Shown piece by piece: positions 3,822 to 35,081 of a stretch of 64,000 bases of DNA. Source of the DNA: Patescibacteria group bacterium (GTDB taxonomy: Bacteria; Patescibacteriota; Minisyncoccia; Phycocordibacterales; UBA9973); the NCBI GenBank assembly GCA_038063635.1, contig JBBTUS010000006.1, positions 13,500-77,499 on the forward strand. The letters are read 5' to 3'. The notes under the pieces are model-generated. The model did not search any database and was not told where the DNA came from. It was given only the letters and a program-made list of their open reading frames with translations. How positions within the stretch are numbered: position 1 is the first letter of the stretch; every line of letters starts with the position of its first letter. The translations under genes were made by a program, and so were the position numbers.

Positions 3822-3995
3822 CCGGATGAATAAACAAAAAATTGTTTTTATAATACTTCGTTTGGTTATGGGTTTTATGTTTCTTTGGGCGTTTTTTGAT
3901 AAACTTTTTGGCTTGGGATTTGCGACAACCCCTAATCCTCTAACCCCTAACCCCCAATCCTCTAATCTCTAATTCGCGCGAATAGGCGAATAGAT
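3822..3995 (+). repeat. left copy of a direct repeat (about 170 bp, internally deleted) flanking the fic cassette; the right copy is 4966..5478
   Basis: Long identical nucleotide runs were seen by eye at both ends (the start of doxX, and the tail ending ...ttcgcgcgaataggcgaatag). Confidence 0.7.
3826..3972 (+). pseudogene. truncated duplicate of the doxX-like gene at 4970..5422 (5' 110 nt fused to the 3' tail region; 48 codons)
   Basis: Nucleotide stretch 3826-3940 is nearly identical to 4970-5084 (MNKQKIVFIILRLVMGFMFLWAFFDK versus MHKQKIVFIILRLVMGFMFLWAFFDK). It is joined to a tail resembling 5408-5478 (ccaatcctctaatctctaattcgcgcgaataggcgaatag). Confidence 0.6.
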
Positions 3996-4967: not shown

Positions 4968-5478
4968 CCATGCACAAACAAAAAATAGTTTTTATAATAC
5001 TTCGTTTGGTTATGGGCTTTATGTTTCTTTGGGCATTTTTTGATAAAGTTTTTGGCTTAGGATTTGCGACAACTGCAGACAAAGCATGGATTAACGGGGT
5101 ATCGCCAACAGCTGGTTTTCTTTCTTTCGCGACAGAAGGTCCTTTCGTTAATATATTTCACGCCCTCGCCGGTGTTGCTGTTGTTGATTGGCTATTTATG
5201 CTCGGACTTTTGTTTGCAGGACTAACTCTTGTATTTAATAAATTTATAAAATGGGGATGTATTGCCGGATGTTTAATGCTATTTTTTATGTATTTGTCTT
5301 TGCTCTGGCCGGAAAATAATCCAATTATTGATGAACATATCGTTTATATTTTAGTACTTATACTAATCGCTTTTAATAATAAAAATAACATCGAACAAAA
5401 ACCCACCACCCTTAATCTTTAATCTTTAATCCCCAACCCCCAATCCTCTAATCTCTAATTCGCGCGAATAGGCGAATA
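4966..5478 (+). repeat. right (complete) copy of the direct repeat pair bracketing the fic cassette
   Basis: Its start (4971-5084) and tail (5408-5478) match 3822-3995. Confidence 0.7.
4970..5422 (+). CDS. DoxX-family small membrane protein (four TM helices)
   Basis: At 150 aa and hydrophobic, it has a DoxX-like topology. The N-terminus LRLVMGFMFLWAFFDK is typical of DoxX/DoxD-like proteins. Confidence 0.5.
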   Translation: MHKQKIVFIILRLVMGFMFLWAFFDKVFGLGFATTADKAWINGVSPTAGFLSFATEGPFVNIFHALAGVAVVDWLFMLGLLFAGLTLVFNKFIKWGCIAGCLMLFFMYLSLLWPENNPIIDEHIVYILVLILIAFNNKNNIEQKPTTLNL

Positions 5479-5508
5479 GTTATTATCTAAAGTTTAATAT
5501 AATAAAAA

Positions 5509-31474: not shown

Positions 31475-32419
31475 TTATTTCTCCCAAGGAAAATCAGGCC
31501 TTCCAAAATGACCCCATTGTGAAGTTTCGGCAAATTTAATATTCTCTAAATTTAATAATTTTTTTATTCCTTTTGGAGTTAAATTATATCCTTCTATGAT
31601 AGTTTCCTTTCCATCTAATACTGCAATAGCCATAACTGGTTCTGGCTTCCCTATTGCATAGGCAAGTTTTACAAAAACTTCTTTTGCTTTATACATTTTT
31701 ATAAAATCTATTGCAATTTTTCGAGCTATATATGCTCCGCTTCTATCCACTTTTGTGCAGTCTTTCCCGGAAAAAGACCCTCCCCCAATCGGTATTTCTG
31801 GACCGTAATTATCTACCACTAATTTTCTGCCTGACAAGCCGGCATCCGCGTCAAACCCGCCCATCGTCCAATCTCCAGCCGGATTAATTAAATATTTCTC
31901 GGCAGAAATTATGCTTTTTACTAGCGGTAATAAGTCTGTGTTTTTAGAACTTTGAAAACTTACTACGACTGTTTTTATTTTATCCCCGTCTAGCGTAACT
32001 TGCACTTTACCGTCATATGGATATTTTTCATAAATTTTCATACAAAGATTTCTAGCTAATTCATATTCTAATGGCATTAAATTTCTTGTTTCAGCAGTGG
32101 CATATCCTTTCATAATTCCTTGGTCTCCTGCGCCTCCAATATCTACTCCTTGAGCAATCTCTGGACTTTGTTTGGATAAATTAACAATAACTTTATAATT
32201 TTCTCCGACAATTCTTTTTATTAAAAACTCTAAATTCGGCGATGCTTTGCTCGTAACTTCTCCGTTGACAGTGATAAGATTATGGCCACCCATTACTTCT
32301 ATGCCTACGCGACTTTCTTTGTCATTTTCCAAATAGGCATCTAGTATAGAATCCGCGATAAAATCACAAATTTTATCTGGATGACCGGGACTTACAAATT
32401 CTGCTGTTTTTATACTCAT
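31475..32419 (-). CDS. metK: S-adenosylmethionine synthetase (compact 314-aa form)
   Basis: GHPDKICD, GAGDQG and GGGSFSGKDCTKVDRS are MetK motifs. Confidence 0.85.
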   Translation of the reverse strand: MSIKTAEFVSPGHPDKICDFIADSILDAYLENDKESRVGIEVMGGHNLITVNGEVTSKASPNLEFLIKRIVGENYKVIVNLSKQSPEIAQGVDIGGAGDQGIMKGYATAETRNLMPLEYELARNLCMKIYEKYPYDGKVQVTLDGDKIKTVVVSFQSSKNTDLLPLVKSIISAEKYLINPAGDWTMGGFDADAGLSGRKLVVDNYGPEIPIGGGSFSGKDCTKVDRSGAYIARKIAIDFIKMYKAKEVFVKLAYAIGKPEPVMAIAVLDGKETIIEGYNLTPKGIKKLLNLENIKFAETSQWGHFGRPDFPWEK

Positions 32420-32513
32420 ATTTTTTAAAATAAAAGGTATTAAACCTTTTAATTCGACGTCGACTCGGACGTCGTGAACGAGATTACTCGTTCACACGCT
32501 CCTCGCTCGTCGA

Positions 32514-32712
32514 AATAAAAAATCCTCTAATTGAGGAAAGATTTTTACGTTGACTGGACGTACTTATCTCTCCTAATATTGCTTTTGCAATATTGGTTGG
32601 ATTTAGCACCTTGCCAAATAAATTCTAACAGGTTGCTGAGCGACTCGAGCCAAATCTCGTTCTCCATCCGCAGTTTTAACGAAGGAGGATCATCGCTACT
32701 CTTGATACAAAC
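32514..32712 (-). ncRNA. SAM-I (S-box) riboswitch with a terminator expression platform in the metK leader
   Basis: The minus strand reads ...TATCAAGAG...CAGCAACC...AAGGTGCTAAATCC...GAGAGATAAG in the order of the conserved S-box segments. The P3 pairing is AGCA(A)CC/GGTGCT and the P4 hairpin is CAATATTGC-AAAA-GCAATATTG. A TCCTC-AATTA-GAGGA hairpin plus TTTTTTATTT follows. The element sits directly upstream of metK. Confidence 0.6.
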
Positions 32713-32833
32713 TATTTAGTTATAAATACATAATAGCAAATATATACTTTTATGCAAATATATTTTAAAAAGTAAAATATTGCTTAATTTCTTTACTTAT
32801 AATAGTATTTACTATATATTTAATTAATAAATT

Positions 32834-33730
32834 ATGATGGTAGACTCAATTATTAGTGCAAAAAAAATAAACGAATCAGATGTCGTTATTCTGCTGGCCG
32901 GTTATGAAAAAACTGTTTCGTCAAAAAAGGGCGCATCAAAAGGTCCTAAAAAAGTTTTAGAAATGCTTGACTCAAAAATTGAGTTTTTTGACCGTACTTA
33001 TAAAACAATTCCTAGTAATAAAATTAAAATTGGAGAAAAAAATCTTGGTATTATGAAGTTTTTTTCTCCAGAAAAAGTTTATAAAAAAATAACATTGGAG
33101 TGCGAAAAATTACTTAAAAATAATAAATTTATATTCTTACTAGGAGGAGAACATTCCGTCTCATTAGGACATTTAAAGGCTTTAACAACAAAAATAAATC
33201 CGAAAGAAGTTACAATAGTGCAAATAGATGCTCATTGCGACTTACGTGATAACGATAGCGACTATAGTAAAAAACCATCAAAATTTGCGCATTCATGTGT
33301 GGCGCGTCGCGCTCATGAATTAGGATATAATCTTATTCAAATTGGTATTCGTACTTATTCCATTGATGAATATAATTATTTTTCTGATCCACAAAATAAT
33401 ATTACGGTTTTTGAATGGGGTGTTGGCAAAAAAATTCCAACCATAGAAGAAATAATTGGGTCTATTAAAACAAAATATGTTTATATTACTATAGATATAG
33501 ACGGATTTGACCCAAAATATATGCCTGGAACCGGCACTCCCGTACAGGGTGGCCTTGATTGGTGGTATGGAATAGAGCTTATAGAAAATATTATAGATAA
33601 AAAAGACATGATAGGAGCAGATATAGTAGAAGTATCCCCTGTTAAAGATTCAGTTCTAACTGAATACGGAGCTGCTCAACTTTGTTATACAATGATAGCT
33701 CATAAATTTAGGGATAAATTAATTTCTTAA
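32834..33730 (+). CDS. arginase/agmatinase-family ureohydrolase (agmatinase-like)
   Basis: GGEHSVS, QIDAHCDLRD and ITIDIDGFDP are the ureohydrolase Mn-binding motifs. Confidence 0.75.
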   Translation: MMVDSIISAKKINESDVVILLAGYEKTVSSKKGASKGPKKVLEMLDSKIEFFDRTYKTIPSNKIKIGEKNLGIMKFFSPEKVYKKITLECEKLLKNNKFIFLLGGEHSVSLGHLKALTTKINPKEVTIVQIDAHCDLRDNDSDYSKKPSKFAHSCVARRAHELGYNLIQIGIRTYSIDEYNYFSDPQNNITVFEWGVGKKIPTIEEIIGSIKTKYVYITIDIDGFDPKYMPGTGTPVQGGLDWWYGIELIENIIDKKDMIGADIVEVSPVKDSVLTEYGAAQLCYTMIAHKFRDKLIS

Positions 33731-34325: not shown

Positions 34326-35081
34326 AAACAAGGTTCAACCTTGTTAAAATCTTGTTAAAATTCTTTTCTGAAATTTAACCAGTCACTTATAAAATCCTTA
34401 AACTCTTTACGGTATTTAAAGTATTGTGGAAAATTTTCCATATCCAAAATAGATTTTTCTTTTCTATTAAAACCACAATGATCTAAAAAGCTTGAGAACT
34501 TATAATTAAACAAAAAAATTTTTACCCTTATTAAATTTTTAATTCCCTCTTCTTTCCAATTTTTCTCTATTAATTTTACTGGGTTTAATCCAATATAAGC
34601 GAACAAATACTTTAAATAATTATCCTTTTGAACATGACTGCCTTTAAATCTACCTTGAAAGAGGGTGCCATTTCTATTGTATTTCTTATTGAAATACATA
34701 GTATAAGCAGTCATTAATTTTTGCATAAACAAACTAATTCCACCTTCACTTTTTTCATTGATTAAAATATGAAAGTGATTAGGCATCAAACAATAAGCAC
34801 CAATTTCAACCAATGTTTCGTTTCTCTCTAAATTCAAAAGTTCTGACAAGGTCTGACCTTGTCTTAAATAGTCTCCTAAATCTACTTTCAAATTACTATT
34901 GCATAAATATAAAAGAATTAAAAATCTATAATAATCACTTGTTTCATTAAAAATAATTCTTTTATCGGTACCTCTGTTATAAATATGATAAAACTCGCCG
35001 ATAGAAAATTCTATATTTCTACTCATTAATATATTTTAGCAAAGAATACACAGAAGACAAGGTTCAACCTTGTCTTCTGTG
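34326..35081 (-). mobile_element. REP-associated tyrosine transposase (RAYT) / IS200-like unit: a HUH-Y1 transposase gene flanked by palindromes with the shared core acaaggttcaaccttgt
   Basis: The left hairpin is aacaaggttcaaccttgtt (34326-34344). The right is a perfect 33-bp palindrome cacagaagacaaggttcaaccttgtcttctgtg (35049-35081). Confidence 0.7.
34355..35026 (-). CDS. HUH Y1 transposase (IS200/IS605 TnpA-like / RAYT family)
   Basis: CLMPNHFHILI is the HuH motif. YIGLNPVKL matches the catalytic Tyr context YI..NPVK. Confidence 0.7.
   Translation of the reverse strand: MSRNIEFSIGEFYHIYNRGTDKRIIFNETSDYYRFLILLYLCNSNLKVDLGDYLRQGQTLSELLNLERNETLVEIGAYCLMPNHFHILINEKSEGGISLFMQKLMTAYTMYFNKKYNRNGTLFQGRFKGSHVQKDNYLKYLFAYIGLNPVKLIEKNWKEEGIKNLIRVKIFLFNYKFSSFLDHCGFNRKEKSILDMENFPQYFKYRKEFKDFISDWLNFRKEF

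Follow-up and report, generated by a model that had tools for sequence, protein, structure and literature searches.

A putative SAM-I riboswitch with a branched P2 helix in the metK leader of a Patescibacteria genome

SAM-I (S-box) riboswitches (RF00162), such as those of T. tengcongensis metF and B. subtilis yitJ, fold into a four-way junction of the helices P1 to P4, lie upstream of a SAM-cycle gene, and act through a terminator/antiterminator platform that uses the P1 3' strand. SAM-I/IV riboswitches are without the kink-turn internal loop. Together with SAM-IV (clan CL00012), they have the ligand-binding core in common with SAM-I, while their P4 and pseudoknot are located downstream of P1.

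In SAM-I, a kink-turn gives P2 the bend that its loop needs for docking, and disruption of the kink-turn abolishes SAM binding in a model riboswitch (PMC3672288). A different kinking element can substitute for it, at the price of weaker binding, and an engineered SAM-I in which the kink-turn was exchanged for the RNase P pk-turn bound SAM about 1000-fold more weakly (PMC3672288). A kink-turn whose non-bulged strand contains an additional hairpin is termed a k-junction and has been described in TPP riboswitches (Wang et al. 2014, PMC4005666). In the literature covered, which is incomplete, neither a natural replacement of the kink-turn by a junction nor a k-junction was found described for SAM-I. 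Within the same incomplete coverage no report of SAM riboswitches in Patescibacteria was found, which is weak evidence of novelty.

The metK leader considered here lies in a 64,000-nucleotide stretch of a Patescibacteria MAG (the window). It has in common with RF00162 the four-way junction P1-P4, the core blocks UAUCAAGAG, GCAACC, AAGGUGCnAAnUCC and AGAUA, a pseudoknot at the same positions, the place upstream of a SAM-cycle gene and a terminator/antiterminator platform that uses the P1 3' strand. It differs in a predicted three-way junction where the kink-turn is expected, an unusually short P1 and a score below the Rfam threshold and, relative to Firmicute S-boxes, in its host. As in the pk-turn construct (PMC3672288), another kinking element would be combined with a preserved core and pseudoknot; that construct is artificial, whereas the window case is natural, recurrent and made of a branched junction. 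With a probability of roughly 85%, we consider the metK leader to be a SAM-I riboswitch acting by transcription attenuation, in which the kink in P2 is made by a three-way junction.

The metK locus and its SAM-I aptamer

The putative riboswitch precedes a compact metK gene.

31475-32419, minus strand: metK, short 314-aa form, the putatively regulated gene (Pfam N, M and C MetK domains)

The metK product matches solved MetK structures with an E value of 1.9e-57, and the divergent gene (32834-33730) on the other side of the spacer (32420-32833) belongs to the arginase family (agmatinase-like), so that both flanking genes are those named in the earlier note. That note had also described the spacer as GC-rich, which applies to the transcribed leader (0.40 GC) but not to the promoter part (0.12) or the spacer as a whole (0.31, against 0.33 for the window). 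The short 314-aa MetK is the usual form across Patescibacteria.

Compared with solved MetKs (377-430 aa), the window MetK is shorter by ~70-100 residues; the deletions map to surface loops, including ~15 residues directly before GAGDQG, and the NCBI name for the short form is only “domain-containing protein”. The gene repeatedly adjoins polyamine or SAM-cycle genes, such as the arginase-family gene in the window (32834-33730), a gene for AdoHcy hydrolase (L196, 1-741; L numbers denote loci), or, in close relatives (L198/L199, 1-1483), genes for agmatine deiminase (PAD_porph) and CN_hydrolase. An ORF with an IS200-like Y1 transposase domain (PF01797, E 1e-9) is found at 34355-35026, two genes from the riboswitch locus. 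A 62-aa plus-strand ORF at 32531-32719, which overlaps the aptamer in antisense, was judged spurious.

The aptamer and its parts outside P2 are as follows.

32555-32716, minus strand: putative SAM-I (S-box) aptamer, full length (clade covariance model R2 and Rfam RF00162)
32707-32699, minus strand: S-box block UAUCAAGAG
32638-32631, minus strand: S-box block CAGCAACC
32612-32599, minus strand: S-box block AAGGUGCUAAAUCC
32572-32563, minus strand: S-box block GAGAGAUAAG
32704-32712, minus strand: P1 5' strand GUUUGUAUC, with the solid core UAUC (32707-32704) pairing with GAUA (32568-32565)
32605-32637, minus strand: P3, GCAACC...GGUGC with a bulged A (Rfam alignment and fold)
32597-32604, minus strand: J3/4 AAAUCCAA, in which CCAA (32600-32597) is the 3' half of the pseudoknot
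32572-32596, minus strand: P4 hairpin CCAAUAUUGC-AAAA-GCAAUAUUAGG (similar P4 in L196 and L115)
32560-32571, minus strand: J4/1 (AGA) and P1 3' strand (GAUAAGUAC) (Rfam and R2 alignments)

A significant minus-strand match to RF00162 had been predicted, and a sensitive scan of 32400-32850 (451 nt) returned one at 32711-32561 that covers model positions 1-108 (30.3 bits, E 6.3e-5). This match is full-length and significant, but its score is below the Rfam SAM gathering threshold of 44.4 bits; a default Rfam scan of the whole 64-kb window yielded a single tRNA and no SAM match. Every upper-case consensus position of the RF00162 alignment is matched by the window aptamer. The low score is explained by P2, where 52 nt occupy the place of the 19-nt P2 tip of the model because P2 carries a 31-nt extra hairpin segment (H1) and is without the 3-nt kink-turn bulge.

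Loci of MetK relatives were retrieved (80 genome and 80 metagenome), and a clade covariance model, R2, was seeded with 23 clean clade metK leaders, the window being left out. R2 matched the window at 32716-32555 with 54.2 bits (E 1.2e-10 over 415 kb, model positions 1-112), and this match in the metK leader is the only one in the 64 kb. The search identified 57 aptamers in 99 sources, and several of the seed leaders exceed the Rfam SAM cut-off unaided. In the 23-leader seed alignment, the SAM-I helices and pseudoknot are 93% paired, compared to 32-42% for slid controls, with two-sided changes at 15 pairs and covariation at all four pseudoknot pairs.

The four-way junction P1-P2-P3-P4 thus has both family covariation and the minimum free energy (MFE) structure of the window aptamer behind it, as the aptamer folded alone is predicted to form P1-P4. 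The fold of the metK leader has a z-score of -5.85 relative to shuffled sequence. All conserved nucleotides of the ligand pocket are present, namely, UAUC/GAUA in P1, AAGAG in J1/2, GCAACC/GGUGC with the bulged A in P3, and AAnUCC in J3/4, and the four conserved blocks UAUCAAGAG, CAGCAACC, AAGGUGCUAAAUCC and GAGAGAUAAG were recovered on the minus strand in the order first noted.

Individual helices largely agree with the initial description. P3 with its bulged A forms in the predicted fold and is 99% paired in the family. The P4 hairpin exists, although it is not the perfect 9-bp helix that had been claimed, having 8 contiguous pairs (AAUAUUGC/GCAAUAUU) or 10 with a 1-nt bulge. The caveats that P1 is short and that the P2/kink-turn region is divergent were justified; only four pairs of P1 are well conserved across the clade, which makes the short P1 a family trait.

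The pseudoknot between the P2b loop (UUGG, 32653-32650) and J3/4 (CCAA, 32600-32597) is intact in the window. These two elements are complementary at 4/4 positions in 49 of the 57 family aptamers, and the two halves switch together between UUGG:CCAA (n = 23) and CUGG:CCAG (n = 18). SAM-IV and SAM-I/IV were rejected as classes, since P4 (32596-32572) is located between J3/4 and the P1 3' strand, as in SAM-I, and the best match within the clan is RF00162. The full-length Rfam match, the homology to above-threshold leaders, the family covariation and the preserved core blocks all uphold the S-box reading, and by homology to bona fide members the metK leader should be a genuine SAM-I (S-box) riboswitch.

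SAM-I aptamers that are greatly enlarged, probably by insertions in P3 or P4, occur at L015 (2240-2443) and L155/L158 (918-1097); these matches are ~180-200 nt long and still score 67-86 bits with the clade model.

An extra hairpin in P2

P2 of the window consists of the following elements.

32692-32697, minus strand: P2a 5' strand AGCGAU, pairing with GUCGCU (32644-32639)
32690-32691, minus strand: 5'-strand GA, at the kink-turn 2n/1n positions of canonical relatives
32662-32687, minus strand: H1, extra hairpin of 26 nt, CUCC-UUCGU-UAAAACU-GCGGA-U-GGAG (predicted fold and comparison with sisters)
32646-32659, minus strand: P2b hairpin CGAG-AUUUGG-CUCG, in which UUGG is the 5' half of the pseudoknot (stem and loop as in sisters)
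32639-32646, minus strand: GA and then the P2a 3' strand (GA-GUCGCU), without the 3-nt bulge of the sisters

In canonical sisters (L108, L115, L120, L096), P2 reads GCGA-YGA-GRG-AWUUGG-CYY-NNN-GA-C-UCGC, that is, P2a, the 5' GA, P2b with the pseudoknot loop, a 3-nt kink-turn bulge, the 3' GA and P2a'. L196 and L197, which share 83% MetK identity with the window, have this canonical layout too. The window shares P2a, the GA, P2b and the loop with these sisters, the only differences being the insert and the missing bulge. Its 31-nt segment UCCUCCUUCGUUAAAACUGCGGAUGGAGAAC, made up of H1 and linker nucleotides, lies between the 5' GA and P2b in the non-bulged 5' strand of P2. On the opposite strand, the window has CUC-GA-G-UCGC where the sisters have CUC-NNN-GA-C-UCGC. 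GA is thus present on both strands, and the 3-nt bulge that forms a canonical P2 kink-turn together with tandem G-A pairs is absent. In canonical clade members, the final A of the 5' GA is invariant and the base before it is mostly G; the window UGA is like that of sister L108. All 5 pairs of P2a covary across the family.

H1 recurs at the same P2 site in at least five other lineages, namely, L121/122, L125/126, L151, L138 in a short form (CUCCUU-CGUAC-AAGGAG), and L147/149 as a remnant, and it is absent from the canonical sisters L108, L115, L120, L196 and L197. L137 and L016 have unrelated hairpins at this site, and L007 has one on the 3' side. The insertion position is identical in six H1-carrying leaders (or seven if the L147/149 remnant is counted), as well as in L137 and L016. 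The carriers are scattered on a MetK neighbor-joining tree, which is shallow and unreliable, and P2a of each carrier resembles P2a of its canonical neighbors.

Insert-bearing aptamers tend to be missed by Rfam. In a sensitive scan, the five insert-bearing relatives that registered gave 43.3, 37.5, 37.2, 36.7 and 34.3 bits, all under 44.4, and no SAM match at E <= 0.01 was obtained for L138. The sister L196, with a canonical P2, scored 52.1 bits, and L016 just passed with 44.7 in a separate scan.

A three-way junction in P2 is predicted for the window and for every carrier. The H1 stem is nearly invariant among carriers, where no two-sided covariation was seen, only a U-G to U-A change and, in L125 and L149, an A-C mismatch; shuffle z-scores of isolated P2 domains were not significant. 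Two registers of the stem were compared, and CUCC/GGAG with UUCGU/RCGGA fits best with the L138 short form and with copies found outside S-boxes. The consensus of this conserved and possibly portable hairpin is CCUCC-UUCRUUAAAACURCGG-GGAG.

The insertion position corresponds to that of k-junctions (PMC4005666), as H1 is situated between the 5' GA (2n/1n) and the strand of P2b (C helix). L125 (GUA-GA) and L016 (GAU-GA) retain the full kink-turn signature beside the inserted helix, i.e., the 3-nt loop and GA on both strands, as in a k-junction. The window differs from a k-junction in having no 3-nt loop (CUC-GA-G), and L151 and L121 have in addition lost the 3' GA. From the recurrence of the insert, the preserved pseudoknot and the agreement among predicted folds, we infer that the branched junction supplies the P2 bend in place of the kink-turn, which would leave the kink-turn signature under weaker selection.

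Outside S-boxes, the 22-nt H1 core (CCUCCUUCGUUAAAACUACGGAGG) was found free-standing with its own closing stem in two phage-like IMG/VR contigs, at L161 2239-2260 (minus) and L162 1645-1666 (plus), which makes an origin as a portable module possible. Neither an S-box nor any Rfam family was detected in L161 or L162. In L161, the core directly follows an ORF and has a U-run on the other strand, where it resembles a terminator. A search of IMG/VR for the H1-P2b junction pattern returned 32 chance matches, none with an S-box, and among the 199 loci and the window H1 occurs only within an S-box P2 or in L161/L162.

The leaders of L147 (682-703) and L149 (1137-1158) are decayed S-boxes that keep P1, P2a, H1 and the P2b loop, after which the sequence jumps to a terminator remnant and the metK ATG.

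Expression platform and downstream segment

The leader flanking the aptamer contains the following candidate elements.

32730-32758, minus strand: promoter-like site, TTTGCA, 17-nt spacer and TG-extended TATTAT (consensus scan)
32710-32721, minus strand: 5' leader segment AACUAAAUAGUU, with the clade motif ACAAYUNAAUA and a possible 4-bp hairpin beside P1 (part of the MFE fold)
32534-32574, minus strand: antiterminator, AGGAGAGAU pairing with AUCUUUCCU and enclosing UACGU-CCAGUCA-ACGUA (platform MFE -15 kcal/mol)
32513-32537, minus strand: intrinsic terminator, UCCUC-AAUUA-GAGGA and then UUUUUUAUUU (U6AUUU) (terminator scan)
32453-32514, minus strand: GC-rich long imperfect hairpin, 62 nt (fold)
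32427-32450, minus strand: small second hairpin with a U-run, AAAAGGUU-UAAUA-CCUUUU, immediately 5' of the ATG (fold)

Most related leaders have a TATAAT-like box at equal distance from P1, and the site at 32730-32758 presumably functions as a promoter. Between the -10 box and P1, ACAAYUNAAUA is conserved in most clade leaders (~50 loci; 32710-32730 in the window), where it may mark the 5' end of the transcript, stack on the short P1 or act as a promoter-proximal signal.

The antiterminator and the terminator are alternative pairings. AGGAGAGAU runs from the 3' strand of P4 to the beginning of the 3' strand of P1; the antiterminator overlaps the 5' half of the terminator. The antiterminator pairing is kept in relatives, with an inner stem that covaries around a CUAGUC-type loop. 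A hairpin and U-tract had been proposed to follow the aptamer, and the scan did call a terminator hairpin there (32537-32523, tail TTTTTTATTT). In all, the region had 3 sites of this type, whereas shuffled sequence gave an expectation of 0.4. The stem of the terminator is limited to 5 bp, and the segment folds at -6.7 kcal/mol. Both elements are near-identical to those of L109 and L116 and are conserved clade-wide. With an aptamer 5' of metK and a platform that competes with it for the 3' strand of P1, the leader appears to follow the classical S-box attenuation design.

Transcription would probably start near 32723. When SAM is plentiful, it would bind the P1-P4 four-way-junction aptamer, which is held by the UUGG:CCAA pseudoknot, and the P2 kink would let the P2b loop reach J3/4, with the H1 junction replacing the standard kink-turn here. 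Binding would lock P1 and the base of P4, so that AGGAGAGAU could not pair with AUCUUUCCU, the UCCUC/GAGGA terminator with its U-run would form, and RNA polymerase would stop before metK. At low SAM, the antiterminator would form and metK would be transcribed. The riboswitch thus probably switches off metK by premature termination; SAM binding, termination and the replacement of the kink by the junction are what we infer for this locus.

Further hairpins before the start codon, as the earlier note had it, were seen in the fold, a GC-rich one (32514-32453) and then a second with a U-run (32450-32427). They belong to ~95 extra nt between terminator and ATG and together fold at -40 kcal/mol, whereas in most relatives the ATG follows ~10-25 nt after the U-run. 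The GC-rich hairpin has no other copy in the window and none in the leaders of relatives, a sensitive Rfam scan over it gave noise matches only, and the second hairpin is not conserved in relatives. The ~95-nt segment is treated as a lineage-specific insertion.

A REP-like palindrome is present at the same place, in the terminator-ATG gap of the metK leader, in L125/L126 (1172-1188). The window contains two copies of a ~60-nt intergenic element (3930-3994 and 5416-5479) that consists of CTAATC/CTAACC-type short repeats and then a palindrome TCTCTAATTCGCGCGAATAGGCGAATAG, the core of which recurs in L125/L126, a distant relative. This element looks REP-like and common to Paceibacteria.

Alternative readings and distribution in Patescibacteria

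The P2 insertion might have broken the kink-turn and with it SAM binding, in which case the leader would be a decaying, non-functional S-box relic in the process of being lost. Such decay would fit the sub-threshold Rfam score, the missing kink-turn bulge and the loss of SAM binding on kink-turn disruption in the model riboswitch (PMC3672288), as well as the many close relatives without a leader and the truncated, H1-bearing aptamer of L147/L149. However, all core blocks, P1-P4, the pseudoknot and a complete expression platform are intact in the window, and the real relic in L147/149 looks different, being truncated after the P2b loop. The insert also accompanies intact aptamers in at least five other lineages, where MetK shares only 70-73% identity with that of the window, a pattern that points to long-term retention under selection, and we consider a relic very improbable. 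Control exerted mainly after the terminator, through effects of the downstream hairpins on translation, processing or stability and with an S-box terminator that is not the operative switch, is the least probable of the alternatives. It would make sense of the weak terminator stem (5 bp, -6.7 kcal/mol) and of the unique 95-nt structured insert (-40 kcal/mol), whose second hairpin and U-run abut the ATG, yet the short terminator and its antiterminator are conserved clade-wide and most relatives have their ATG within ~10-25 nt. As it is unique to the lineage, the extra segment is better explained as an insertion of a neutral or REP-like kind, similar to the element in L125.

That H1 is a portable module with its own function (protein-binding, mobile or terminator-type), acting as a second input or as a selfish insert, seems unlikely, though less so than a relic. 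Its sequence is almost invariant while the surrounding P2a varies and matches the canonical sisters of each carrier, its carriers are scattered on the MetK tree, and the 22-nt motif stands free in two IMG/VR contigs without an S-box, with the L161 copy following an ORF. Against this, the tree behind the scatter is shallow and unreliable, and among the 199 loci and the window H1 is confined to an S-box P2 or those two contigs. Moreover, L138 has a shortened stem with a different loop, and the hairpins that occupy this site in L137 and L016 are unrelated to H1, which suggests that a helix there matters more than the H1 sequence. A bolder proposal, which we offer tentatively as somewhat more plausible than an H1 function of its own but still doubtful, is that these leaders form a natural and recurrent sub-class of SAM-I aptamers, in which a portable hairpin has converted the P2 kink-turn into a three-way, k-junction-like junction that sets the P2 bend, and in which the module may spread or bind a factor. 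We retain the reading of a SAM-I attenuator with a branched P2. Its branched P2, the sole unusual feature of the window aptamer, would be a modest structural variant and is mildly new.

SAM-I leaders are common in this group. Of the first 20 genome loci, 13 have an Rfam SAM match above threshold (44.7-69.8 bits) 5' of a short metK, above-threshold metK leaders include those of Saccharibacteria, Uhrbacteria and Paceibacteria MAGs, and an S-box is present at no fewer than 59 of the ~110 metK loci covered in Patescibacteria. An S-box in a CPR genome had been thought notable, a view that these counts contradict; with SAM-I leaders before short metK genes in many Patescibacteria, its occurrence is unremarkable. 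Among the relatives closest in MetK identity, many are without a leader, metK being either ~100 nt from a divergent arginase-family gene or directly after an agmatine deiminase gene, which indicates that the regulation is dispensable and that the switch is often lost in the clade.

Apart from P2, the window would have a textbook feedback loop that leaves knowledge of SAM regulation unchanged. The leaders constitute a natural series in one aptamer background, from a canonical kink-turn, through a kink-turn with an added helix (L125, L016), to a junction without the kink-turn signature (window, L151), which would let the three-way junction be tested as a stand-in for the kink-turn. SAM-I control of metK appears to be widespread in Patescibacteria, and since the Rfam threshold misses branched-P2 copies, riboswitch regulation in these reduced genomes is likely to be under-counted.
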